Source: Candidatus Latescibacterota bacterium
GTDB taxonomy: Bacteria; Latescibacterota; UBA2968; GCA-2709665
Direction of reading: 5' to 3'
NCBI GenBank assembly: GCA_965116875.1
Contig: OZ220733.1
Span: 3,488,001 to 3,552,000 of the forward strand
DNA length: 64,000 nucleotides
Both the position numbers and the translations under genes were made by a program. The notes below the pieces were generated by a model, which was not told the DNA's origin, did no database searches, and was given only the letters and a program-made list of their open reading frames with translations. Within the stretch, counting starts at the first letter, position 1; every line of letters starts with the position of its first letter. Below, one piece after another: positions 99 to 64,000 of this stretch.

Positions 99-3000
99 AT
101 GCGTTTCCTTGTCTTTAGACATTCGCTCTCATGGCTACTGCAAACCGTTCGATTCACGCTCGGCGCCTCGGTAATGTTTTGCCTGTTGTTATTCGTTCTA
201 CCGTGGTCGCCGTCCACGCAGCCCAGCGGGTTTTTCCTCACGCTGGACCTGGACGATGCCGCAGCCGACCAGGCTGTTTCCTCGCTCGACCTCCTTCGCG
301 ATCAGCCCTTCTCCATCCAGATCTTCGGTAAGGATATTCAGAATGCCACCGGCATTTTCGTGCGCTTGCGTTTCGATGCATCCGAGGTCCTATACGTGGG
401 CTTCGATCCGGGTGATGTGCTGCCCAGCGTCCAGGCCGCCGTACAGCAGGATTCCACGTCCCTTACCATCGCCGTCTATTCCTCGAGTGGTTCCGCATCG
501 GTGAACGCGGGTCGGATCGGCACGTTTCGCTTCCGTACGACGGACGCGTTTTCGGACACGGAGGTGTGGTTGGTGGACGCGGGACTTTCCCGCGGCGGGC
601 AGATCGAGACGATCTCACCTGACATTGGCGTGGCGCTGCACGTGGCCGCGGCTCCATCTCCGGACTTCGACGGCGACGGCGTGGTGGGCTTCTCGGACTT
701 CGTGGCCTTCGCCGGTGTATTCGGGACAGAGCGTGGCGACAACAGGTACGTGGCGGCGTACGATCTGAACGGCAACGGCGGCATCGGCTTCGATGACTTT
801 GTGGTCTTCGCCAGCAACTTCGGCAAGAATCCCAATCGCGCTCCCACTTTCGGCGCGGCGCCGCGGGTGACACGTACCTTGGAAGAAAATACGGCTGCCG
901 GTGAGCCCATCGGGAACCCGGTCACGGCCACGGATGCCGACGGCAATTCCCTGACGTACCGCCTGCGTGGCGTGCACGCGGACAGCTTTGCGATTAAACC
1001 GGGCACGGGTCAGCTTCTCACGAAGGCAGGGATTGCGTACGACCACGAGGCCATGGACAGGTATTCCGTGACGGTACGCGCCAGCGACGCGCAGGGCGGT
1101 CGCGCCACGGTTGTGGTGGGCATCACGGTCACGGATGTGGACGAACCCCCTTCCGCGGCGCCAGATAGCGTGCGGGTCGCTACCCTCGAGGGCGCGCTTG
1201 CCGTGACGTGGACGCCGTCGCTGGACGAGATCGGCAAGCCCACCGTGAGCGGGTACGAGGTGGGGCATAGGCCGGCAGAGGCCCAAGTATGGCGGGAGGG
1301 GCTGCTGGTGGAAGGCCGCACGGATACTGGCGTCACATTGTCAGGTCTGACCAATGATCAGGCGTATCACGTGCGCGTGCGGGCATTGAACGACGAGGGT
1401 GCAAGCCCCTGGTCGGCGCCCGTTGCGGGTGCTCCCACGGCGGGTCCGCGCCCCCGTGGCGTGGTCCGCGACCTGACGGTAAACGTAGACAGCGTCGCGC
1501 AGGTGAACCTCGCCAGCCTGTTCACACGGCCCGCCCTCGGGGCGCTGACCTACGGCGCGACGTCGTCGGACGAGGGGGTTGCCACAGTCACCGTGGCGGA
1601 TACGATGGCGACAGTGTTCGGCGTGGCCACGGGGCGTGCGACCCTCACCGCCACGGCCAGGGACGTGTACGGCGACAGCGCACAGACGAAGTTAGGCGTG
1701 GTCGTAACGACATCGTCAGCGCCACCGCAAAACAACAGGCCACCGTCCTTCGACGACGGATCGGCCACGTCGCGCACCTTGGCGGAGAACACGCCCGCAC
1801 GCCGGCCCATCCAGCATCCGGTGCGCGCCACCGACCCGGACGATGACCTCGTGACGTACAGACTGTCGGGGCCGGACTCCGCCAGTTTCGCCGTTGACAC
1901 AGGTACAGGGCAACTGCGCACGTTGTCGGGCATCACATATGACTTCGAGGACAACGACCGGTATTCCATAATTCTGGAAGGCAGCGATCCTTACGGCGAA
2001 TCCGCCACGATCGGCGTCACGGTACACGTGTCCGACGTGGACGAGCCGCCCGAGATTCCCGCGGCGCCGGTGGTCCAGCCCGCGTCGACGACCAGCCTGG
2101 CGGTCACGTGGGACGCGCCGGACAACACGGGTCCGGATATCACCGACTACGACGTGCAATATCGGAAGAGCGGCAGCTTCATCCCCCATTCACACATAGG
2201 GCCAGGGACGAGTGCGACCATCATCGACCTCGACGTCAACACCCGCTACGAGGTGCAGGTGCGGGCAACGAACGACGAAGGGAACTCCCAATATTCCCGC
2301 TCCGGCTTCGGCGTCACCAGTTCCAACCTCCCGCCGGTGTTCGACGAGGGACAAAGCGCCACGCGCGAGGTGGCAGAAAATACCAGCGGTGTGCAGGACC
2401 TGGGCACGCCCCTGCGCGCGAACGACCCGGAAAACACAGCAGTGACGTACAGCCTTTCCCGCGGCGACACCGGGAGCTTCGACATCGATGAGAATACGGG
2501 GCAGCTGCAGACGAAAACCGGCGTGACCTACGACTTCGAGGCGAAGGACCGCTATTCCGTGACGGTGCAAGCTCAGGACGAACAGAACGGCCGCGCCACC
2601 ATCTCCGTGACCGTCAACGTGACCGACGACGACAGCGAGACGCCGGAGACGCCCGATAAGCCCACGATCACCGCACAGACGCTGAACAGCCTTTCCATAC
2701 GCTGGACGGCGCCTGCCAACACCGGGCCTGCCATCAACGACTACGACGTGCAGTACCGGGAGGGAAGCAGCGGCGCTTTCACCGACTGGCCGCACACGGG
2801 GCCCGGGACGACCACGACCGTCACCGGCCTGAACCCGAACACAGCGTACCAGGTGCAGGTGCTGGCCCGTTCGCCCGAAGGGGAGAGCTCCTGGTCCGCG
2901 TCGGCAGATGCCAGGACCGTGGCCAACCGTGCGCCCACGTTCAACGAGGGCACGAGCACCACGCGCTCATTGGCTGAAAACACCATGGGTACACACGACA

Positions 3001-6000
3001 TCGGCAATCCGCTCACCGCGACGGATACCGACGGAGGCACGCTCACCTACGCCCTCGAAGGCACAGACCGGGCCGCCTTCGCGCACGACGGCAACCAGCT
3101 TCAGACGCTATCGGGACAGACTTACGACTTCGAGGCGAAGCCCCGCTATAAGGTGAAGGTACGCGTCGAAGACGGGCAGGGCGGCAGCAACACGATCGAA
3201 GTTGCCATCAACCTGACGGACCAGCAGGAAACACCCGATACCCCAGACGCGCCCGACGTCTCGGCGGCCTCGTCCACCAGCCTGGAGGTGACGTGGGAAG
3301 AGCCGGAAAACACGGGCCCGGACATCAACGACTACGACGTGCAGTACCGGGAGGGGGACAGCGGCGGCTTCAGCACATGGACACATAACAGCGCACAGCG
3401 CAGTGCAACCATCACGGGCAGGACGCCGGGCACAAGCTACCAGGTGCAGGTGCTGGCGCGGTCTCCCGAAGGCGCCAGCGACTGGTCGGAACCGGGCACG
3501 GGAAGCACGGATGCCAACGCTTTACCCGTGTTTAGCGACGGAGGCAGCGCTACCCGCGCTCTTGATGAGAACACGACGGGCGTGAAGGACGTCGGCGCCC
3601 CGGTCAGTGCGACCGACGCTGAGAAGACCACGCTGACGTACGCGCTTGAAGGCACGCACGCGGACTCCTTCTCCATCGACACCCGCAGCGGCCAGCTCAA
3701 GACCAAGACGGGCAGGACCTACGACTTCGAGGCTCTGTCCCGCTATTCCGTGAACGTGAAGGCCACGGACGGCCACGGCGGCGAGAGTACGATCCCGGTA
3801 TCCATCGACCTGAACGACCTCAACGAGGCCCCGGTCTTCACCAGCGGCAGGGCCTTCGAGGCGGCGGAGAACCAGTCCTTCGCCGGGACGGTCGCCGCCG
3901 CCGACCCGGACCAGGGCGATGCCGTCACAGCCTACACCCTGACCGGCGGCAGCGACCAGGGTCTGTTCGAGATCAACAGCGCCGGGACGCTGTCTTTCAA
4001 GGAGAACCCCGACTTTGAGAGTCCTGCGGACGCGGACAGGAACCGACAGTACAACGTGGCCGTGACCGCAACCGCCGGCGCCGGAGGCCGCGCCTTGACC
4101 GCCCGTCAGTCGATCGCCATCACCCTCACCGACGAGAACGAGCCGCCGGTTTTCACCATTGAAGACACCTTCGAGGTCACCGAGAACACCCGGTTCGTCG
4201 GACGAATGGTGGCCCAGGACGTCGATGCCGGTGATGCCATTACCGGCTACGCTGTCACGGGCGCCGCCGACGGAGACCTGTTCGGGATCGCCAGCACAAA
4301 CCAGCTGCGCTTCAAGGAGGATCCCGACTTCGAGACGCCCGCGGATGCAGGAAGCAACAACGTCTACAGCGTGGTGGTGGAGGCGACCGGCGGCAGCGGC
4401 GCCCGCGAACTGACGGGCGCCAAGAAGGTCGTCGTCCTCGTGAAGGATGACGTGGAACCGCCGGGCAAGCCGGACCCGCCTGCGGTAAGTGAAGAGACCG
4501 AGAGCAGCCTGACCGTGACATGGACGGCGCCGGAAAACACCGGTCCCGTCATAACCAACTACCACGTGCAATACAGGCAAGGCGTCAGCGGGGCCTTCAC
4601 GGATTGGCCCGAGTCCGGCCCGTCCCTGTCTCGCACGATTACCGACGTGAGTTCGGGCAGAGTCTACCGGATCCAGGTACAGGCGCAGAACGACGAAGGG
4701 AAGGGTCCGTGGTCCGACGTGGCCTACGGCCTGATCCTCCCGGCGCCGGTGGTTTCTTCCCCGACCCCGGTCTTCACGCCCGCTCCGGACGAGGACCATG
4801 TCTTCGATCAGCCGGTGACCCATTCCTATAGAGGCGACTACACGAGTAAGCTGGATCCCGGCGACCACACCCGCACCCACGTGAAGTACGACGACGGCAC
4901 GCTCGAGCCGGCAACCGGTACTGCCGGGATCGACATCACCAACAAGAACGCGGGTACCGAATACCACGCGATCACGATAGGCGACAGCGCCGCGATCAAT
5001 GCAAGTGGAAGCGTCGCGGCCAACATCACAGCCGAGGGCAACTCCGGGAACCTTCGGATCCTGAACCGGGGCTCCGTTACTCTCGATAGCGCGGGAATTG
5101 GCATCCGCGCGGTAATGAAGGCCTCCCCCGCCAACATACGCCTCGTGAATGACGGAGACATCACGCTGAACGGTCTCACCGCCGCGCCCGATTCGGCTCA
5201 ATCCAACCATCGTCTTGTGGTCGGGAGCCTCAACAAGGCGGCGGAGCCCCACGACTTTTCAAACTACAGCCACAAGGTCGAGTTGTTCAACATGCCCGGC
5301 GGCCAACTCATTGCCACCGGTCCCTACAACGAACGGGTTGACGGCCTGAAGGCCGAGACCGGGAGCGGACACCTCACACGACTGGTCAACTACGCGGAAG
5401 GCGTGATCCGGATCGAAGGAGAGGGCGCGCGCGGGATCTCGGCTCAGAGTCTCTGGGGAGCGTCACAGGGTCTCAACTTCGGCTCAATCGAAATCAACGG
5501 TTTGTTTGCGATAGGCCTGCACACGGGTAACTGCTCGCCGTGGCCGTTCACGGACAACGGTTGCCATGGGGCCCTGGATGAGATCGTCCCCGACCGGACC
5601 AGCTACGTGCCGGGCGACGTCTACGCGAGGAACTACAGCAATGCCTCCATCACCACGAGGCCGACCACACGCACGGACGACACGCGCCCGCAGCGCCACG
5701 GATACGGAATCAGCGCGAGGACTCAAAATGCCGGCCGGATCTTCGCGATCAACGAAGGGACGATCGACACCGAGGGTAAATGGAGCCATGGTATATATGC
5801 ATACGGTTACCATAATCGCAGAGATCTCGATGACGATAAGTACCCCGATATTCCGGACTACCCTGACACGTGGGAGCACGACGGCGTCTATGTGGTGAAC
5901 ACCGGCACGGTCACCACGGACGGAGAGGCAGCCCACGGTATTCGTGCCGAGCATCACCGAGGCGGCGAGATCAAGGTATTCAACACCGGGAATATCTCAG

Positions 6001-16988: not shown

Positions 16989-17064
16989 TGGTGGAGCTGA
17001 TCGGGATCGAACCGACGACCTCATGACTGCCAGTCATGCGCTCTCCCAGCTGAGCTACAGCCCC
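16989..17064 (-). tRNA. tRNA-Ala(GGC)
   Basis: Reverse complement GGGGCTGTAGCTCAGCTGGGAGAGCGCATGACT-GGC-AGTCATGAGGTCGTCGGTTCGATCCCGATCAGCTCCACCA; 76 nt, G3:U70 pair, CCA end. Confidence 0.97.
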
Positions 17065-55243: not shown

Positions 55244-57574
55244 TCATTCATGTCTGAGCGTATCCGCCGGATTCGCCGTTGCGGCCTTGTAAGTCTTGCA
55301 GCTGACCGTAAGCATTACGAAAGCGAACGTCAGCACGGCCCCCGCGATGATGGGTACGTTCAGGTCAATTCGATAGACGAAATTCTGAAGCCACTCTTTG
55401 AATAAAAAGTACGCGATGGGCCCTGCAATTATGGTGGCCAAGATAACGATCTTTATGAAGTCAAAGGAAAGGAGCGTCATCAGACGCGGTACAGATGTGC
55501 CGAAGACCTTTCGGATTCCGACCTCCTTTGTTCTTTGGGCTACTGTAAAAGAGGTTAACCCAAATGAACCGAGGCAAGCTAAGCCCAACGCAAGAATTGC
55601 CGAGAATTGCACGGCAAGCAACCATTTATTTTCGTCCTTATATTGGTTCTTCAGGTCATCTTCAAGAAACCTGGCCCGAAAGGGTTGAGACGGTGCTATC
55701 TTGTGCCATTCCTTCCGCAGGATACCGAGTGTGTGCCAATCCTCCTCGGAAATCGATATAACAAACAACTTGCGACAAATCTCAGGTTCGATGAAAATGA
55801 CAGCAGGCGCAACCTGACGGTGAAAGGATCTGAAGTGAAAATCTCTTACCACGCCGATAATCGGCGCGTCGTGACCACCGTTCCAATCGACAACTTTGTC
55901 TTTTGCACTTCGCCATCCAAACTGCCTCATGAGGGCTTGATTGATAATTACGCCGTTGCGGTCGGTGGAATACAAACTGGAAAAGTCCCTTCCCTCTAAC
56001 ATTTTAAACCCGAGTGTGTTCAAAAAGCCAAAATTCACCGCGATATTCTCCACATGTTCAACCTTTCTGCCCTCAGCTTCAACAAAGCCGGCGATTGTCT
56101 GCCTATTGCTAAGTGGATGGGAACCCCTCGCAACGCCAGCTATGTTGGGATATAATGCTAAATTCCTCTCATAGACATCGACCAGGGCTGGCGAAGTTTC
56201 CAAAAGCCGCCCGATTCCGACTTCAATTACGCCGTCCGTTCGGAATCCCGGATTCTTGTTAATAAGCAGATTCAGTTGTGCGACCATTGCAACGGTGCCC
56301 ATTATTAAAACCATTGACATAGCAAACTGAAGAACAAGCAACAATCTCATCAGAAAGCCGAGATTCACGCTCTTAGGTCGAGCACAAAGGACCTCAATCG
56401 GTTGTAGACGAGACAATGCCAGGGCAGGATAAATGCCTGCAACCACGCCTATGGCCACCGTGAGAAGAAGCACATAGAGTGATGTCGAGACGTTTAAATG
56501 TCCAAATAGGCTGATTTTTCTCCCGACAAGGGCGTTAAAGCTCGGTAAGGTCGCGGCCATCAATCCGAGCGCGATGATCAATGCCATAAGCGCCAACAAG
56601 ACAGACTCAACGAGGTATAGATTGACAAGCTGATGTCTTTGCGCGCCGAAGAGTCGACGAACGCCAGCCTCCTTTGTGCGCAAGAACGCACGACCGATGG
56701 CCATTGCCGAATAGTTGACGCTCGAGATCGTAATCACAGTGACCACGATTCCGAAAAATATGTAGATGTACGCAGGATCAGTCGAGCGTTCGACTCCGAG
56801 AGTGTGTCTGTCGTTATGCATTTCTTTGAAAGGCTGCAGCAACAGGCTTATCGTACTGATTTTTTCCTGCCCCAACTTTCTATGGACGATTTTGGTCAGT
56901 CTTTCCGAGACACTACGAGGCTCCAAATAATCGGGCAAGAGCACAAATGTCGTGGCGACCAGAAATTCCCATGAATTTAGGAACCTACCTGCAGCATCGC
57001 AGGGCAGCAAACAATCGAATACTATACTGGAATTGTCTGGAAGTCTTGACACGATGCCGGTAACTGTATAGACCTCCTTTTCATTTAAGGTCAAGACCTT
57101 GCCCACCGGGTTTGCGTCTGCAAATAGCCTTGTCGCAACGTTTTCCGTAATCACTATAGAACGCGTTGCACTAAGTGCCGTTGATGGATCTCCCATCAAC
57201 ATCGGAAAAGAAAACGCCTGGAGAAATGAGGGATCGACATAACTCATGCGAACTCTCATCGATTTTTCCGCATGAGCGATAGAAGCCCTGTCTCGGTAAA
57301 CCCTTACAACCGTTGCATCCTGAAATTCATTGGCGATGGTGGGCCCGAGTGGCAATGGTGTACTGCTCATCAATTGATCCCCCGATCGAACGCAAACTCG
57401 GTAAATACGATCCACATTAAGATGGAAGAGATCGTAGGTCCATTCGCTATGCGCGAATAGGACTGCAAGTAGTGCAAAGGCCAGAGAAATCGAAAAACCA
57501 CCGATATTGGCCAATGAAACTAGCTTGTGCTTGAGAAAACTTCTGAATGCCAAAGTAATGTAATTGGGTAACAT
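55244..57574 (-). CDS. ABC transporter permease, duplicated MacB/FtsX type
   Basis: NYI.LAFRS..K.K..S..NI.G, YD.FH.N.DRIYRV, R.KE.GVR..FGA, LLVLQFAMS, IIGVV.DFHF.S, RTKEVGIRKV.G, AA.ANP...LR.E. Confidence 0.9.
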   Translation of the reverse strand: MLPNYITLAFRSFLKHKLVSLANIGGFSISLAFALLAVLFAHSEWTYDLFHLNVDRIYRVCVRSGDQLMSSTPLPLGPTIANEFQDATVVRVYRDRASIAHAEKSMRVRMSYVDPSFLQAFSFPMLMGDPSTALSATRSIVITENVATRLFADANPVGKVLTLNEKEVYTVTGIVSRLPDNSSIVFDCLLPCDAAGRFLNSWEFLVATTFVLLPDYLEPRSVSERLTKIVHRKLGQEKISTISLLLQPFKEMHNDRHTLGVERSTDPAYIYIFFGIVVTVITISSVNYSAMAIGRAFLRTKEAGVRRLFGAQRHQLVNLYLVESVLLALMALIIALGLMAATLPSFNALVGRKISLFGHLNVSTSLYVLLLTVAIGVVAGIYPALALSRLQPIEVLCARPKSVNLGFLMRLLLVLQFAMSMVLIMGTVAMVAQLNLLINKNPGFRTDGVIEVGIGRLLETSPALVDVYERNLALYPNIAGVARGSHPLSNRQTIAGFVEAEGRKVEHVENIAVNFGFLNTLGFKMLEGRDFSSLYSTDRNGVIINQALMRQFGWRSAKDKVVDWNGGHDAPIIGVVRDFHFRSFHRQVAPAVIFIEPEICRKLFVISISEEDWHTLGILRKEWHKIAPSQPFRARFLEDDLKNQYKDENKWLLAVQFSAILALGLACLGSFGLTSFTVAQRTKEVGIRKVFGTSVPRLMTLLSFDFIKIVILATIIAGPIAYFLFKEWLQNFVYRIDLNVPIIAGAVLTFAFVMLTVSCKTYKAATANPADTLRHE

Positions 57575-57833
57575 CGTCGTCAGTCAGGGCCGGTTTGCAT
57601 AGCGGTTTTGCGCCACTTTCGTTCTGTATAAGGTATAAGGCTTGCGTGTCAAGCGCAAGCCCGTGGAACGTGGCAATAGGTTGACGATGGGTTAAACTTT
57701 CCCTTCTTTCGGAGGCAAACTCGTGAACACATAATAATGTCGGGGCCTTCGAAGAAACGAAAGCCCCAAGACTGTGGTTGAGTTTGCGTTTTGCCATTGG
57801 TGGATGGTTTAAATTCGAAGCAACACCCTGAGA

Positions 57834-58127
57834 CTATGGGCCATCAGCCTCAGGCGGCTTTTCGCCACATCCGTTCCACCAAATTGTACACGGATTATTG
57901 GATATACACCAGGCGCCGAGACAATCCGCGCCCCAGCATTCAATTCTGATCGTCCAACCGCAACACTTGACTACGCAAACATGGTCGTGCGCGTACGCCG
58001 GCTGGACATAAGTCCCAAACAATGTGACAACAGCTAAGAGTGCACAAATGCACCAAGTCCAGGCCAATCCCCGTCTTGGTGACGCAGAGCCCCTTTCGTC
58101 TCTCAGAAAAGACTTAATGGCAGACAT
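57834..58127 (-). CDS. Small secreted Cys/Trp-rich peptide precursor with a Flp-pilin-like leader
   Basis: Strong AAGGAG RBS; MSAIKSFLRDERG leader, hydrophobic segment, AYA cleavage motif, 51-aa C-terminal part with 8 Cys and 5 Trp. Confidence 0.8.
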   Translation of the reverse strand: MSAIKSFLRDERGSASPRRGLAWTWCICALLAVVTLFGTYVQPAYAHDHVCVVKCCGWTIRIECWGADCLGAWCISNNPCTIWWNGCGEKPPEADGP

Positions 58128-58379
58128 CCAATCGCTCCTTTTTGTTGGAGGTTTAATGCCAGAGAATTAATCTCCATATCCGCTTCAGCTGGACCAAAGT
58201 GGATCTTACTGGCGCAGTTTGCATAAGCCCAATCAGATCCACAGAGGTTGTTTTTTATTGCTTACGGAACGGTCCAAACGCGGGGCGATCGAAATCACGA
58301 CATTTGATCCTCCTTTGTTAACTGTTGTTGTTAACTCAATTGATCTCGCCAGGACGATTCTTATAGCATCACCTCCCTT

Positions 58380-59501
58380 CTATAGGCGTGTAGCAATCCC
58401 GCCGCTCATGATTTGTACAACCAGTCGGGTTATTGCACTGCCAATATTGTCCGCTACCAGGGCAGTCAGCACTGCCCCTGCCGTAATGAATGGAACAAAC
58501 GGGATGGTACGGTCCAAAGCAATCTGCCGATCCCTGGGCAACACACCCTCGCAAGTGAGTTGATTTAGACGATTCAAGGCTTGTCTTGTGAGCGGTCGCC
58601 CTCCCTTCAAGAGCATTCGCGCGACTTCATTTCTATCATCGCGACAGTTTTCCTGCTCCTCTGATTCGAGAAATACGGATTGGCTTGGGACATTCCCCGG
58701 CTGAAGAGATGAAATTGGCACTGAATGGGTGAAGGTCGTACCGTACATGTGACGTATTTGGATATACACTAATTCCATAACCCAAACGATCGACCCCACG
58801 CCCAGATAGGTCAAGATTCCGTCGGTCGTCAAACTCAAGTAGATGACGACAACACAACCTGTCCAGACGATCAGTGACCAGTGACGGGGTTGCAGGACAA
58901 AATCAATCAAACGGTATCCAATGACCAAAACAGCAATAGCCTCCAGATAACTGATGGGACGTCTCAACACCAGAACGGTCATTCCAAGGATGATTCCAAG
59001 GAGACCGAGATATTTAGCGGCGGATCGTAAGTAGAGATCGGTACTTTTCAATCCCTTAGCCAGAATCCCGTCGTTGGTTCGTGCGAAAAACATCGAACTC
59101 AAACCATACAGGAAAAAACATACAATCGTATTAATGACCAGAGCTGAACTGGCCGTATGAAGCGAAAGCGCACTATAGCTTGGACAGAGTGTAGGGGGCA
59201 GCGCTAAAGCGGTCCCCAAAAAGAGCTTGCCGTCACCCGGTCCCCAGACCCGCGCAATTGTCATTCCTGCGCTAATGGTAAGGCTGCTGGCGATCACGCC
59301 GACCACCTGATTGGCTGTGGTGATACCGCTGATCAACATGATCCCCTGACCAGTAAGGCCGACTCCCATCAAGCCGACTGTCCACACGTTCGGTACCGTT
59401 CGGGCATAAACGTCTGATAAGCAGATATATAGACCGCCCCCAAATACTGCCGACAGCATGAGCCATTCCACCCAGAAGATTCCATCGTTCAATATGCCCA
59501 A
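58380..59501 (-). CDS. A24-family prepilin peptidase (long form with C-terminal domain)
   Basis: Catalytic Asp motifs SDVYARTVPN and WGPGDGKL; C-terminal IPFVPFI.AG; many TMs; TTG start. Confidence 0.8.
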   Translation of the reverse strand: MGILNDGIFWVEWLMLSAVFGGGLYICLSDVYARTVPNVWTVGLMGVGLTGQGIMLISGITTANQVVGVIASSLTISAGMTIARVWGPGDGKLFLGTALALPPTLCPSYSALSLHTASSALVINTIVCFFLYGLSSMFFARTNDGILAKGLKSTDLYLRSAAKYLGLLGIILGMTVLVLRRPISYLEAIAVLVIGYRLIDFVLQPRHWSLIVWTGCVVVIYLSLTTDGILTYLGVGSIVWVMELVYIQIRHMYGTTFTHSVPISSLQPGNVPSQSVFLESEEQENCRDDRNEVARMLLKGGRPLTRQALNRLNQLTCEGVLPRDRQIALDRTIPFVPFITAGAVLTALVADNIGSAITRLVVQIMSGGIATRL

Positions 59502-59519
59502 GACTTAACCCCTTAAAAT

Positions 59520-60098
59520 TCACCGCAAATTTGCGAGACGATTTACAAGCTCGAGCGCTGGTCCAAATCCGACCGCGAAATCCACAATAACCCCCGCTTC
59601 AGATATCCAATACGCGCTTGGAACGCCATTTATTTTGTAAGCGCGAAATATCTCTCCTGTCGTATCCTGCACGACTGAGAAGCGGGATGTGAATCGGGCT
59701 TCCATCTCATCAGCCTCTGGCGAATTGTCGTTCTCGGCTGTCGTCCCACGACTTACAAAAAAGAGTTGATCAACGGGCAGTTCTATTTTTGTCTCAATCA
59801 ATTCACGCTTCAAGTCCTGGGAGTATTGGCAAGTCGGCGACATAAAGACGAGTCCAAGATTACTGCCGCGTAGTTCATTAAGTTCAACTGAATCGCCGGA
59901 TCCAGTATGGAACGTAATATTGGGCGCTTCAGCTCTCCAAGGCAGCTGTTCATTATACAAAGGCTGAATAATTGAAGACTGAGGCACTCCAATGGCGCCA
60001 AGTACGATCACCGCAACCATTCCCAGGCCAATCCCCAAGGCGTGGAATCGAACCGAAGAGAGATTCGACAATTTCAGCTTCAGAGTAGTGTAATCCAT
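59520..60098 (-). CDS. Membrane-anchored thioredoxin-fold (TlpA/redoxin-like) protein with CxxS motif
   Basis: N-terminal TM, APNI.F....G..V.L..LRG, FMSPTCQYS, Y.INGVPSAY.I...G.I. Confidence 0.75.
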   Translation of the reverse strand: MDYTTLKLKLSNLSSVRFHALGIGLGMVAVIVLGAIGVPQSSIIQPLYNEQLPWRAEAPNITFHTGSGDSVELNELRGSNLGLVFMSPTCQYSQDLKRELIETKIELPVDQLFFVSRGTTAENDNSPEADEMEARFTSRFSVVQDTTGEIFRAYKINGVPSAYWISEAGVIVDFAVGFGPALELVNRLANLR

Positions 60099-60226
60099 TG
60101 ATCCGCCTATCTTTACTTGGACCGCAAAAAGAATGTCATCCAATAATGGGCAACACATTTGCGCCAAGCCAAAAGACATACCGGCTCGTACCTTGCGACC
60201 TCGGTTTCTCGTTTAAGACGAAAGGG

Positions 60227-60778
60227 CTACTTGTTGTCAACATTAAACGAAGAAAACATCCGGAAGATGTTCCCCGGTCCGGTCGTCGCCTTGAGAATGA
60301 CCCCCGCTTCATCAACAAGCAGGGCGCTCGGGACTCCGAAGATGCCCATCGACCTGAGTGATGCTCTGGTGCTGTCGTAACCCACAACTGCCGTGATTCC
60401 GTGAGCCTCTATTACCTTTCCCAGATTAGCGCGCGAGCCGATTCCCACAATCAACAATGGAATCTTCGAATCGGCATTTTGCAGGATTGGGTAAACGGAA
60501 TCGCAAGCGTCGCAATCTGTAGACGTAAAATAGAGGACGTAAGTATCGCCCCTCATTGAATCAGGTGATACATTGCCGAAATCAAGTCCACTAATCTCAA
60601 AATGCGGAACCTCTTTTCCGACTAATCCATCGAGCGGGTCGACCCGTAATCCAGGCGGATGTCCGAAAAACCTTACCCCAAGGGAAACACACAAAGCGGC
60701 AAGTATGCCACAGGTGAGGGTCATTGCCATTTTGAGGTTTCCTTCGTTGACCTTGGCGAGCGGGCTCATTGGATTCAA
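60227..60778 (-). CDS. Membrane-anchored thioredoxin-fold (TlpA/ResA-like) protein with CxxC motif
   Basis: TM anchor, G..VP.F.I, LYFTSTDCDAC, GVPSALLVD..G.I. Confidence 0.8.
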   Translation of the reverse strand: MNPMSPLAKVNEGNLKMAMTLTCGILAALCVSLGVRFFGHPPGLRVDPLDGLVGKEVPHFEISGLDFGNVSPDSMRGDTYVLYFTSTDCDACDSVYPILQNADSKIPLLIVGIGSRANLGKVIEAHGITAVVGYDSTRASLRSMGIFGVPSALLVDEAGVILKATTGPGNIFRMFSSFNVDNK

Positions 60779-60782
60779 TGCC

Positions 60783-61358
60783 TCATTCTGTCAGCTTTCT
60801 CGATCCCGAATGAATCCATTTTTCAAGTTCACGCAACTGAAGCAGAGTAGCACGGACGGAATACGTGGCTCCCGAAACGCCGTCAATATCCCCGATACCC
60901 AGGCCTGGATTCTCGAGTGATCTGCCTGAAAACTGACGCAGGAATTTCATGGGATCGTATGGACCTGCCTCCAGGTGCCATGGCTCAAGTGGCAGGATCT
61001 CCATAATCTTGTAATTGGCAGGATCAAAAAGCACACCCAGGAGAAGATCCGTGCATGTCGAGCAGACAATATCGTGCCGGACTATCGCAAGTCTACCAAC
61101 TGGCTTGTCGCCATTAGAGACCGAATAGACTGCAAGTACACCGGATCGGGGCTCAGGACGCGCGTCAAAGAAGACTCTGATTTCAATGTCTTTCCATTCG
61201 GTGCGAAGAGCTGATATGTGAGAAACCAGCGCTTTTCTCTTAGGTGGGGCAGGGAGCCCTTCTGTTGAAGTCCCGTTAGTCTGATACACAACAATCAAGG
61301 TTACGGCGACAAGTGCAAGGGTGCCAATCAGTACAGCAAGTATCGACGTTACCCTCAT
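60783..61358 (-). CDS. Membrane-anchored FMN-binding domain protein (ApbE flavinylation substrate) with CxxC
   Basis: N-terminal TM; DIDGVSGATYS flavinylation motif; VCSTC; adjacent to apbE. Confidence 0.8.
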   Translation of the reverse strand: MRVTSILAVLIGTLALVAVTLIVVYQTNGTSTEGLPAPPKRKALVSHISALRTEWKDIEIRVFFDARPEPRSGVLAVYSVSNGDKPVGRLAIVRHDIVCSTCTDLLLGVLFDPANYKIMEILPLEPWHLEAGPYDPMKFLRQFSGRSLENPGLGIGDIDGVSGATYSVRATLLQLRELEKWIHSGSRKLTE

Positions 61359-61371
61359 TTTGAGATAACCA

Positions 61372-62427
61372 TTACTTAACCTGCCCAACAGCGCCGAGAG
61401 CTGACGGAATAAGTGCAACCCTTTCAAAGCCAGACGATGTAAATATCTCTCTGTTTTTTGTAATGATAAGTGCCTCTGTATTGGGAAGGCGCTCAATTAA
61501 CTCAACTCCTTGTGCTTGCCCGAGCACCATAACCGAGGTCGCCAGCGCGTCCGCATCCATCGCTCGATCTGCGACTACCGTCGCACTCATCAATCCGCCA
61601 GCGGATACCCCCGTCCTGGGATCGACAATGTGATGAGCTTTTCGGTCAGAGAAAAAGTACTGCGTGTAGTCGCCCGAAGTCGCAATTGCTTTATTGTTGA
61701 GGTGTACGATTGCGATGCGTTCGCTTTCGCCACGAGGATCTTGGAGAGCCACTTTCCAGGGTACATTGCGGGCACGCTCTCCAATTACGCGAACGTCTCC
61801 ACCGGCGTTTACGAATGCCCGAGAAATCCCAAACTGTAACAAAACGTCAATTGCCTTATCAATGATGTAGCCTTTTGCGATTCCATCTAAGGTGACACCC
61901 ATTCCTGGCTTCTCCAACACGATCTCTTGATCATGGATCCTGATTCCTTGATACCCAACAAGCTTGAAGGCATTTTCTAATTCTTCGAATGTCGGACGTC
62001 TACGCTCGTACATGTGGCAATTGTAAAGGAGATCCAGAATAGGTTTGACGGTGATGTCGAATGCGCCATTTGAAAGAAGAGAAAATCGACGGGATTCGAT
62101 TAGAACCTCCTTAAATTCCCGTATCTTTCCAGAGATTGCCCCATTCCGGTTCAGGTGTGACAATTGACTATCGTACCGGTAGCTACTCAATAGGCGTTCA
62201 AGCCTTTCGATTTCATTATAGACTGCGTCGAAAATCACCTCTTGTTTTCCAATGACGTCGGTACTCAAGATTATGGTTACCGACGTCCCCAGGGCTGATC
62301 TTGAGACCTTAACTTGGCGACCCTGCGCTTCTGGCGTACCGAATAACAACAACGAAAGCAACACAATCGCACATGAGGTACGACTATTCAATCGAACGGT
62401 ACTTGAATTTTCCTCTATAGAGCCCAT
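61372..62427 (-). CDS. apbE: FAD:protein FMN transferase
   Basis: LGT.V.I, LS.Y..DSQLS.LN, GAFDITV.P, LDGIAKGYIID, VNAGGD, AIATSGDY..., HIVDPRTG, ADALAT. Confidence 0.95.
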   Translation of the reverse strand: MGSIEENSSTVRLNSRTSCAIVLLSLLLFGTPEAQGRQVKVSRSALGTSVTIILSTDVIGKQEVIFDAVYNEIERLERLLSSYRYDSQLSHLNRNGAISGKIREFKEVLIESRRFSLLSNGAFDITVKPILDLLYNCHMYERRRPTFEELENAFKLVGYQGIRIHDQEIVLEKPGMGVTLDGIAKGYIIDKAIDVLLQFGISRAFVNAGGDVRVIGERARNVPWKVALQDPRGESERIAIVHLNNKAIATSGDYTQYFFSDRKAHHIVDPRTGVSAGGLMSATVVADRAMDADALATSVMVLGQAQGVELIERLPNTEALIITKNREIFTSSGFERVALIPSALGAVGQVK

Positions 62428-63403
62428 CCATGCCCCTTTGGTTTTTCTTCGCGAAATACACATATCCGTCTTTATCAGCCGCCACTATGACACCGTCGAT
62501 GTTGATATCTGTACTGATGGGTTTCAATTGTCTGTCGTAGACGTCTACATATACTCGAGAGATATCTGTATACAATCCTGATTCTCTTTGTGAGTAGCAG
62601 TAATAGACGAGTGAATCGTTAGTTGCGATACTGAGAGCACTGCCTGATGAAGAGATCTGAACCATAGCAGTGTTGGCCGATCTATCGAATTCGATTCTTG
62701 TTCCAAGATTTAGTTCCGGTCGGAGTCGAGTTTTTGTCACGTTACCTTCGTTCCCAAGTGCGACCAGCTCATAGGGCGTATTTGCACCGAATATGACGCC
62801 ACCTTCCCAGGCACGGACCATGCCGCCTGAAAGACTGCCGATTATCACACGCACATCCCGGTCACTGTGGCCGAGTAGGAGTTTTGCGGATCTCTCGACA
62901 TCATAACGATACAGAACGTACCCTTCGTTAAATCCCGCAACATAAGTGGTCCCGTCATGCGTTGCGGCAACTGATGTCGGATTTGCAATTTCGGTAACGA
63001 ATTTGTCCACTACTTGACCCTTGATATCGAATATCCAAACCTTGGCTTCTTCTGCAACGTACAACATTTCTTCCTTGTCGACGGCAATCGCGCGTGGGCG
63101 CCAGGATTGTTCTTTTCCAAGCGCCTTGGGCCTGATCACCGCGGCGTTGTTCGCTCGTGTGGAAACGCGAAAGACCTGACCACTCACTTTATCGCAGATA
63201 TACAGAGTTCCTCCGCGCCCCATCGCAACATCAGTAATTCTCATCGATCCTCGATTAGGCACGGCCTCGAGATTGATTTCCGACACTTCTAGAAATTCAC
63301 TTGCACTTGCTGAACCGTTTGTCCAGCAGCCACATAGTAGAATCATAGTCCACATAATCGGGACATAAGAGGAGCTTCTCAAGACCGAATTGGACAAATC
63401 CAT
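62384..63403 (-). CDS. Secreted 6-bladed beta-propeller (NHL-like) protein, possible lipoprotein
   Basis: Signal/possible lipobox LLCGC; ITDVA....GTLYICD, PRAIAVD.E.MLYVA, PTSVA...DGTTYVA repeats. Confidence 0.7.
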   Translation of the reverse strand: MDLSNSVLRSSSYVPIMWTMILLCGCWTNGSASASEFLEVSEINLEAVPNRGSMRITDVAMGRGGTLYICDKVSGQVFRVSTRANNAAVIRPKALGKEQSWRPRAIAVDKEEMLYVAEEAKVWIFDIKGQVVDKFVTEIANPTSVAATHDGTTYVAGFNEGYVLYRYDVERSAKLLLGHSDRDVRVIIGSLSGGMVRAWEGGVIFGANTPYELVALGNEGNVTKTRLRPELNLGTRIEFDRSANTAMVQISSSGSALSIATNDSLVYYCYSQRESGLYTDISRVYVDVYDRQLKPISTDINIDGVIVAADKDGYVYFAKKNQRGMDGLYRGKFKYRSIE

Positions 63404-63547: not shown

Positions 63548-63949
63548 TCAGGCTTTCCTAATATTTCGCTTTCGATATTCCACCGGGGAAACGCCATGTA
63601 TCCGTCTGAACGCTTCGTAAAGGCGTTTTGACGAACGGAACCCACATTCGGCCGCGACTTCCTTCATAGACATTTGCGTTTCGGTGATCAGTCGTTCAGC
63701 CCGAGCGATCCTGATCTCTCTCAGTTTTTCCAGAAATGGCATTCCAAGATGTTGCTTGAACAGCCTGCAACCGTATGACCGCGAGAATCGCATTTTACGC
63801 ATGGCGTCATTGAAACTCAGGTCCGGGTTGCTGTAATTTGCCTCCAGAAACGACTCCAACCATGTCTTCCAAGGACTCTGTGAATTCGGAGACGTGCATG
63901 ATGTCTCCTGTATTTCCTCGTGCTGTTTCGCGTTATCCAATTTTCCCAC
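63548..63949 (-). CDS. AraC-family helix-turn-helix transcriptional regulator (stand-alone DNA-binding domain)
   Basis: NY.NPDLS, SRSY..RLFKQ..G, RI.RA..L..T..S.KEVA.ECGF.S...F.R..GVSP.EYRK; start uncertain near the window edge. Confidence 0.85.
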   Translation of the reverse strand: MGKLDNAKQHEEIQETSCTSPNSQSPWKTWLESFLEANYSNPDLSFNDAMRKMRFSRSYGCRLFKQHLGMPFLEKLREIRIARAERLITETQMSMKEVAAECGFRSSKRLYEAFRRIHGVSPVEYRKRNIRKA

Positions 63950-64000
63950 AAGTTCAAATTCGAGCGGTTCTTCTGTCAGATCGAGCGGCGCGGCTGGAGT

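Follow-up and report, generated by a model that had tools for sequence, protein, structure and literature searches.

A cysteine-rich peptide precursor family with a pilin-type leader, encoded beside a long A24-type peptidase in Latescibacterota

The window analysed here is a 64,000-nucleotide stretch from the genome of a Latescibacterota bacterium (G000; a single contig, OZ220733.1, 97.7% complete) and it carries, at 57834..58127 on the minus strand, an open reading frame (ORF) for a 97-residue protein in which a short pilin-type leader, a hydrophobic helix with a signal peptidase-like site and a cysteine-rich core follow one another. We read this protein as a precursor that gives rise to a small disulfide-rich peptide outside the cytoplasm. 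It would be cut after Gly13 by an A24-type peptidase and after Ala46 by signal peptidase I, and the core would be folded by a thiol-disulfide module and exported by a permease; we hold this to be the probable, if far from secure, reading. The precursor and its immediate signals are laid out as follows.

57834..58127, minus strand: precursor gene, 97 amino acids plus stop, ATG start (ORF listing, 94 profile relatives, pN/pS below 1)
58089..58127, minus strand: residues 1-13, MSAIKSFLRDERG, Flp-type leader ending in Gly, with the proposed A24 cut after G13
57990..58088, minus strand: residues 14-46, comprising the spacer SASPRRG, the hydrophobic helix (about residues 21-38) and the c-region GTYVQPAYA, with the proposed signal peptidase I cut after A46
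57837..57989, minus strand: residues 47-97, the 51-residue core, with 8 Cys and 5 Trp
58135..58140, minus strand: Shine-Dalgarno sequence AAGGAG, 7 nt before the precursor ATG (read from the sequence; like sites at orthologous genes)
57740..57769, minus strand: terminator-like hairpin of 12 pairs, 3' of the precursor stop (consensus scan alone)

The precursor ORF is a genuine gene

The ORF is identical in sequence to the one quoted in an earlier annotation of this DNA made from the letters alone (the sequence-only reading), which had described a Flp-type pilin leader, an RR-containing signal peptide and an eight-Cys core. When compared with its orthologue in the same-genus genome G006, pN/pS (the proportions of nonsynonymous and synonymous differences) was 0.111/0.418 over residues 1-46 and 0.307/0.665 over the core, and ratios below 1 in both parts indicate purifying selection acting on the coding frame. 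That 57834..58127 is a genuine gene is thus confirmed. Furthermore, when every stop-to-stop frame in G000 of 50 residues or more was scanned (60,701 frames), 386 had the leader pattern M..[FILVM]xx[DSNT]ExG, four of which add an uncharged transmembrane-like stretch and two an AxA-like site as well, while leader, transmembrane stretch, AxA-like site and at least six Cys came together in one frame only, the precursor ORF; the other three transmembrane-like frames are multi-pass membrane proteins. Since a single frame in the genome has the full feature set and the same layout recurs elsewhere, the combination goes beyond chance.

Besides its eight core Cys, the window precursor has two more in the hydrophobic helix. 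It gave no match to Pfam or NCBIfam, and the best E-values of Pfam Cys-rich families against the precursors were 0.08-0.85. Bearing on the knottin-like fold entertained by the sequence-only reading, and on defensin-like folds, a structure model of the precursor (predicted local distance difference test, pLDDT, 63.5 overall and ~62-70 in the core; a helix at residues 18-38, then coil) returned no Foldseek match in the PDB at E<=0.001, a profile search of PDB sequences with the precursors gave one chance-level match (E 0.055), and a look-up in the ESM Atlas gave no usable match.

Some other assignments were considered and dropped. A lipoprotein signal was set aside because the window copy lacks a lipobox and the membrane-segment Cys are absent from other subfamilies, and a double-glycine leader with a C39 exporter because the leader ends in E-x-G rather than G-G and the adjacent transporter matches MacB_PCD, FtsX and, weakly, DUF7544. 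C-terminal amidation by the neighbouring NHL protein was discarded since the precursor C-termini have no final Gly. In addition, a 116-residue ORF between the precursor and permease genes (57447..57797, minus strand) has no family match, overlaps the hairpin and is probably not a gene.

The four sequencing runs were available as contigs, which are blind to expression levels and transcript ends. Run X1 matches the window without any difference and may have been its source. A contig from run X2 spans 57300-58491 with 25 substitutions and single-base gaps at 57735 and 58250, both outside the precursor ORF. A DNA contig from run X6 (a ~94%-identical relative, from the same sample as the RNA-library run X7 discussed below) loses its match at 58333, just 3' of the A24 gene, at 88% likeness, which indicates that the intergenic (58128-58379) and peptide region diverges faster than the protease gene.

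A family with a conserved signal region and variable cores

Single-sequence searches with the precursor returned one relative, P0001 (59% identity by BLASTP against 1.84 billion representatives, 65% by phmmer), the nearest homologue outside the genome collection, which keeps the leader, helix and Cys framework but has RQ in place of RR and lacks HDH at the start of the core. With single queries giving P0001 alone, the family surfaced after precursors were collected from the neighbours of A24 genes. Precursor copies lie beside a long A24-like gene in G006, G033 and G039 (three tandem genes), nine further loci (L029-L037) come from the taxonomic family f3, and precursor-like genes beside A24-like genes in other genomes amount to 15 further genes. 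A profile built from an alignment of 16 precursors (A2) retrieved 94 proteins from a collection of 5.8 billion, none of which is named by any source or carries a Pfam domain, save one apparent A24-peptide fusion. In P0063 (194 residues) the opening ~95 residues of a long A24 are fused to a complete precursor; a deletion, or an error of assembly or gene calling, may lie behind this. The family is unannotated and known so far only from genomes labelled Latescibacterota; it has no Pfam or NCBIfam model, and searches of literature listings and abstract openings found no description of it.

In A2, Glu11, Trp25 and Ala46 are invariant and Phe7 and Gly13 nearly so, and the Flp-type leader of the sequence-only reading is therefore borne out among homologues. 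Flp leaders follow the consensus ..F-[LIV]-x-[DSN]-E-x-G. All 94 profile matches keep the permissive leader and helix pattern [ED]-x(1-2)-[GAV]...W, with G, A or V at the leader-end position in each. The hydrophobic helix that follows is ~18-21 residues long and is preceded by 4-8 polar, often basic residues after the leader Gly, and in 84 of 106 precursors Lys or Arg occurs in this spacer. The g6 subfamily (G/FVAPWTAL, the slash marking the proposed cut) has no basic residue after Gly, and so its sole positive charge sits in the leader. L029:1034-1369 (-) and L031:1019-1369 (-) have a 33-residue leader in which the E-S-G motif is doubled (..LLTSESG IVQPFLANESG/F..).

The A-x-A site was likewise upheld. 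The predicted -1 position is Ala throughout A2 and in 93 of 93 assignable database proteins, a count that is partly circular as the assignment rule preferred Ala, although A-x-A can be read directly in the sequences, and the -3 position in these 93 is A in 76, S in 13, V in two, I in one and G in one (A/T/V/S in A2), with a Pro or Gly conserved 4-7 residues before the site. Past this point conservation falls, from a mean majority-residue fraction of 0.52 over the part ending in A46 to 0.31 over the rest (Cys columns excluded). The Cys-rich core is conserved as a class, with eight Cys in 62 and six in 13 of the 93 assignable proteins; the framework of the window precursor is kept in G006 and P0001, and frameworks differ among subfamilies.

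Judged by sequence, the precursors have the small -1 and -3 residues, c-region helix breaker and h-region of a class I signal, and they also have a hydrophilic leader ending in Gly or Ala, as class III signals do. The presence of a class III-type leader together with a signal peptidase I-type site past the helix leads us to propose that the precursor is cut twice, once at each membrane face.

Much of this could be accounted for by an ordinary Sec signal with a long n-region that is cut by signal peptidase I alone, the ExG motif being a recognition or retention element. The A24-like protein might then clear the signal remnant as a signal-peptide peptidase, serve as a scaffold or chaperone, or act on another substrate. 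GxGD proteases do include signal-peptide peptidases, the basic residues between Gly and helix resemble a Sec n-region, the -3/-1 rule and the Pro/Gly helix breaker are conserved, and the polar spacer after Gly is unlike the class III signals described. However, Glu11 and Gly13 are conserved as strongly as the AxA site, in a motif that fits the Flp consensus, the g6 subfamily carries its positive charge in the leader only, and the single A24 gene of the genome directly precedes its single motif-bearing ORF. We consider a Sec signal of this kind unlikely, though deserving of real weight, and we judge the other roles for the A24-like protein to be equally so.

As the sequence-only reading had noted, the Glu-Tyr signature of pilins at +5/+6 is missing: it occurs in 0 of 106 precursors, Glu is at +5 in five, and these positions are Arg-Arg (R18-R19) in the window and RQ, HK, RK, IR, WT, AI or QN in relatives. 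The sequence-only reading had gone on to suggest that the A24 cut unmasks a Sec signal or one resembling those for twin-arginine translocation (Tat) and that the released peptide starts with H-D-H, an x-x-His terminus of the amino-terminal Cu/Ni-binding (ATCUN) type, and neither idea held for the family. The window copy does have R18-R19, as well as HDH if it is cut after A46, and TatC is encoded in G000, but RR recurs in 4 of 106 precursors, the pattern [ST]RRx[FLIVM][LIVMK] in none, P0001 has RQ, and His stands at position 3 of the predicted core in 3 of 106, so that an ATCUN terminus is not a family feature. Tat is therefore disfavoured by the lack of a conserved motif and not by absence of the pathway. 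Furthermore, an unmasking cut would reverse the established order, as described in PMC10191384, in which prepilin-type leaders are cut after membrane insertion and are still on during targeting by the signal recognition particle (SRP) and Sec. A Tat signal unmasked by the A24 cut and leading to a metal-binding peptide is accordingly very improbable.

A further possibility is that A24 removes the leader and the AxA site stays uncut, leaving a mature 84-residue protein shaped like a lollipop, whose N-terminal helix holds a disulfide-rich head at the inner membrane or which is pulled out by a MacB-type (LolCDE-like) permease. Its leader, helix and small β-rich head would parallel pilins, residues 14-46 are better conserved than the core, and, according to PMC5985334, membrane-embedded moieties can be drawn out by MacB-type proteins in the manner of LolCDE. 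Nevertheless, the drop in conservation falls exactly at the AxA site, and the invariant -1 Ala, small -3 residue and Pro/Gly breaker 4-7 residues upstream are what signal peptidase I requires, whereas a pilin would have no cause to keep them; moreover, the modelled helix ends at residue 38 rather than continuing into the head, and Glu5 and Tyr6 are both absent. Such an anchored protein seems to us a rather poor prospect, below that of a plain Sec signal.

A long A24-like peptidase is encoded next to the precursors

The gene upstream of the precursor encodes a long A24-like peptidase and belongs to a cassette on the same strand, the genes of which are as follows.

58380..59501, minus strand: long A24-like GxGD aspartyl peptidase, 373 residues, with a ~200-residue insert (PF01478)
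59520..60179, minus strand: thioredoxin-like protein, active site C-x-x-S (AhpC-TSA 24.9 bits, below the cut-off of 26; alignment A4)
60227..60778, minus strand: thioredoxin-like protein, active site C-D-A-C (AhpC-TSA 37.1 bits; first Cys invariant)
60783..61358, minus strand: membrane-anchored flavin mononucleotide (FMN)-binding-like protein (likely start M47 by orthologues; the listed ORF runs to 61496)
61372..62463, minus strand: ApbE flavin transferase (PF02424, 255 bits)
62384..63403, minus strand: NHL/SGL-like β-propeller protein (weak SGL and ScyE matches; orthologues match NHL)
55244..57574, minus strand: duplicated FtsX/MacB-type permease, 776 residues (MacB_PCD and FtsX; ADOP and DarB-like below cut-offs)
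63548..64000, minus strand: candidate AraC-type regulator, running off the window (the positional counterpart in G006 matches HTH_18)

The window A24 protein scored 26.3 bits against PF01478 by hmmscan (cut-off 26.5) and 28.2 bits, over the cut-off, in the genome scan, with its orthologues at 25.3-32.2 bits. Asp30, Asp90 (in WG[PA]GDGK) and a C-terminal PFVPF are invariant in 12 A24-like sequences and are split by the ~200-residue insert, and by analogy we take the two Asp to be the catalytic pair of a GxGD protease. Cassette-type A24 proteins score 23-45 bits against PF01478, whereas canonical A24 genes in the phylum score 57-83 bits, are ORFs of ~255-295 residues (with one 390-residue frame), and form a separate class in other families. 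A contig scan with the A24 alignment found three loci only, and in one of these, from a record labelled Acidobacteriota, the match is a motif of 44 residues.

Among 30 A24 loci with 1.5-kb flanks, there are 13 in which the long A24 gene is immediately followed, on its own strand, by a small precursor, and three further loci have a ~273-residue Cys-rich protein with a related leader (..FI[GS]SSSG/LAP.RQ.LGW). Every precursor gene has a Shine-Dalgarno-like site. The involvement of an A24-type peptidase, proposed by the sequence-only reading, is strengthened by the finding that the A24 beside the peptide genes is the only one detected in each of six genomes checked. In G000 the cassette gene is the one PF01478 match and the precursor profile finds a single member, giving one protease and one candidate substrate in the genome.

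The window gene order is retained in G006, and each of the three taxonomic families (f1, f2 and f3) has thioredoxin-like genes flanking A24. A MacB-type permease follows the peptide genes in five of six f1/f2 loci, while in f3 the conserved core runs from the thioredoxin-like gene or genes through A24 to the precursor.

Filament machinery is not detected in most carrier genomes

Prepilin (A24) peptidases are described in PMC10191384 as parts of type IV filament machines. Across the whole of G000 we found no Flp_Fap match at E<=1, no T2SSE match over the cut-off and no T2SSF match; the same family searches succeed in most of 14 control genomes, with T2SSE and T2SSF in 13 of these 14. Likewise, T2SSE was over the cut-off in none of five other carrier genomes, in which every A24 match was of the cassette type. 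Of 168 genomes surveyed in the phylum, the long A24 is present in 32, T2SSE in 52 and both in four (G126, G129, G146 and G148), leaving 28 of the 32 long-A24 genomes without a T2SSE match at E<=1e-5.

These counts bear on the idea that the precursor is in fact a pilin, minor or major, whose filament has assembly genes too divergent to detect. The leader motif and the A24 peptidase are both there, and the carrier G148 has a strong T2SSE match; against this stand the undetected T2SSE and T2SSF in G000, found by the same controls in 13 of 14 reference genomes, the 28 of 32 carriers that lack T2SSE, the missing Glu5, the silent Flp hidden Markov model (HMM) and a conserved AxA site that would sever the head from the helix. 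We give a true pilin scarcely any credence.

The cassette encodes candidate redox proteins

The FMN-binding-like protein has, in alignment A3, an invariant DIDG.[ST]GAT.SV motif of flavinylation type (the [ST]GA[ST] type, as defined in PMC8238504) and an invariant C145-x-x-C148, and one of its orthologues scored 21.1 bits against PF04205, below the cut-off of 22. Its motifs suggest that it may be a combined flavin/thiol redox protein. One of the thioredoxin-like pair has a CxxC site and the other CxxS in f1/f2 and CPYC in f3. Searches of the G000 genome found neither DsbB nor VKOR, and gave two DSBA-family matches.

A proposed maturation pathway and the evidence against it

We propose that residues 1-46 act as one composite signal. 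Going by established knowledge of such signals, SRP and Sec would insert the helix N-in/C-out, so that the 13-residue leader and basic spacer stay cytoplasmic. A dedicated, pilus-independent A24-type protease, encoded just upstream, would then cut after Gly13 at the cytoplasmic face, and signal peptidase I would cut after Ala46 at the outer face, freeing the 51-residue core. The gene content suggests that the two thioredoxin-like proteins could form or shuffle up to four disulfides, with the ApbE-flavinylated FMN/CxxC protein as redox source or sink. Finally, in f1/f2 genomes only, the MacB-type permease may expel the folded peptide from the periplasm, by analogy with the toxin STII. The gene, its family, the conserved motifs, the linkage to A24 and the failure to detect filament machinery are established; cleavage, folding and export we infer.

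Several findings weigh against this pathway. As described in PMC10191384, a class III signal keeps its leader while SRP/Sec targets it, lies N-in and is then cut at the cytoplasmic face, and 20-25 mainly hydrophobic residues come directly after the leader. The 4-8 polar residues that separate the leader Gly from the hydrophobic stretch are unlike this, and may place the Gly too far from the A24 active site. Moreover, the Flp_Fap HMM (PF04964) gave no match to the 16 precursors even at E<=10, and the benefit of a cytoplasmic-side cut is unexplained if signal peptidase I frees the core.

The genomic linkage also has gaps. No precursor was detected within the 1.5-kb flanks at 14 of the 30 A24 loci, and a genome-wide search of G024 gave no A24 although its precursor gene is intact. 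In G148 the T2SSE match reaches 457 bits and the sole A24 match is of the long type, so the long enzyme may serve a filament there. The cassette order is kept in g6 genomes, but with a GT4 glycosyltransferase where the window has ApbE. The f3 loci examined have no neighbouring MacB-type permease, and neither an ABC ATPase nor an adaptor gene turned up next to the permease. Furthermore, the contigs of the RNA-library run X7 (~95% like the window), a library that may contain DNA and so does not attest transcription, cover 59109-59626, 59747-59957 and from 60234 onward (the 5' part of A24 and the thioredoxin-like genes), with none on the peptide gene.

Structure prediction is of limited help in deciding this. 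The AlphaFold2 model of A24 (pLDDT 45.1) was too poor for a fold search. Prediction of a complex between A24 and precursor residues 1-50 gave a score of 0.51 against 0.10 for the best of three controls, with at least 95% of contacts agreeing between runs and a partner pLDDT of at least 63, and lends weak support to the pairing, but a score of 0.51 lies in a band that is more often wrong than right unless the pairing is likely beforehand. In calibration, 58 of 80 solved complexes passed the mark and so did two of 110 mismatched pairs, with scores of 0.60 or below accounting for seven of the 80 solved complexes and for both passing mismatches.

Relation to known systems

The closest parallel is the Tad (type IVc) system, in which Flp/Fap pilins have a short ExG leader followed by one hydrophobic helix, and a small A24 aspartyl peptidase (TadV/CpaA), which lacks a methyltransferase domain, is encoded nearby (components as listed in PMC10191384). 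In contrast to Flp/Fap, the window family lacks Glu5-Tyr6 and adds a polar basic spacer, an AxA site and a Cys-rich head; neither TadA nor TadB/C was found in G000, where the Flp_Fap HMM is silent, and unlike TadV/CpaA the window peptidase has a ~200-residue insert and scores near the Pfam cut-off. The bindosome system also uses a prepilin-type leader and peptidase for cargo other than a classical pilin (PMC3387779). As described there, however, bindosome proteins are large and need pilus-biogenesis homologues, and a second signal peptidase I site is not among the features given, whereas the window cargo is a peptide of ~40-50 residues and no assembly ATPase was found.

For export, the model is the heat-stable enterotoxin STII. 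According to PMC5985334, STII leaves the cytoplasm by Sec, has its signal removed, acquires disulfides in the periplasm and is then expelled through MacAB-TolC. The window likewise has a MacB-type permease directly downstream of the peptide gene. There is no sequence relation, and STII has an ordinary signal peptide and relies on the general Dsb system (DsbA), whereas the window has an extra cytoplasmic-side leader with its own protease, a dedicated thioredoxin/flavin module, and a permease without an adjacent ATPase, adaptor or TolC gene.

The redox genes resemble the ApbE-linked extracytosolic flavin/thioredoxin-like clusters of Meheust et al. 2021 (PMC8238504), one type of which has a small secreted Cys-motif protein, DUF4266; ApbE, a protein with the [ST]GA[ST] flavinylation motif and thioredoxin-like proteins occur together in both. 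The flavinylation-motif protein of the window differs from those described there in having no DUF3570 and an invariant CxxC, and no DsbD lies in the cluster. The main text of that paper has 'peptidase' once, in a reference title, and 'NHL' nowhere, its supplementary cluster tables being outside this search.

A parallel in logic also exists with the Erv/QSOX sulfhydryl oxidases. In these enzymes a flavin beside a CxxC passes disulfides to thioredoxin-fold carriers. Here a covalent FMN on an RnfG-like domain would serve instead, and we do not claim homology.

The A24 enzyme and its leader motif thus persist in genomes with no detected filament ATPase or platform, where they are linked with small Cys-rich peptides and a redox module of the cassette's own. 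If the precursor is indeed cut twice, this would be a new maturation route for secreted peptides, would give a function to a divergent A24 subfamily, and would provide a leader/protease pair usable in genome mining for such peptides. Likewise, the FMN/CxxC protein would open to testing the question of how periplasmic disulfides arise in bacteria that have neither DsbB nor VKOR. A broader proposition, that pilus-independent use of a prepilin peptidase, with a signal cut from both membrane faces, and a self-contained module acting as a bacterial covalent-FMN sulfhydryl-oxidase analogue together mark a new class of ribosomally made, disulfide-rich peptides, secreted by uncultured marine Latescibacterota and hypervariable in their cores, is tentative and in our view doubtful as it stands.

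A conserved leader with variable cores, sometimes in tandem, resembles the precursors of secreted bioactive peptides, and the conserved leader and hypervariable, sometimes tandem core of this family would suit a peptide with an antagonistic or signalling role. Either the 33-residue membrane segment, once excised, or the 13-residue leader might itself be a product.

Distribution of the cassette and further observations

The cassette is patchy, occurring in two of 22 f1 genomes and two of 31 f2 genomes. Transposase or insertion sequence (IS) genes (IstB, Mutator-type, IS66) lie in or beside it in G006, G039, G023 and G105 (L017:7162-7695, L016:9115-10434, L018:7183-8358 and L059:6121-7080). Together, the transposases and patchy spread suggest that the cassette is an accessory, possibly mobile locus. 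The G023 copy (L010 ~1500-1746 (-)), beside a transposase, has lost its C-terminal Cys residues relative to P0068, and in G024 (L019:8106-8354 (-)) the intact precursor stands beside a shortened GT4 gene; both loci look like decaying cassettes.

A subtype of the f3 loci (L040, with the leader-bearing gene at 3294-4112 (-), L041 and L044) has the order substrate, FMN-binding-like, A24, thioredoxin-like, thioredoxin-like. The ~273-residue f3 protein has a C-terminal domain common to unrelated neighbouring proteins, and proteins in L042, L043, L046, L047, L049 and L052 were set aside because they have only this tail domain in common with the L040 protein. Elsewhere in the window, a tRNA at 16992-17064 (-) is the sole Rfam match at gathering score.

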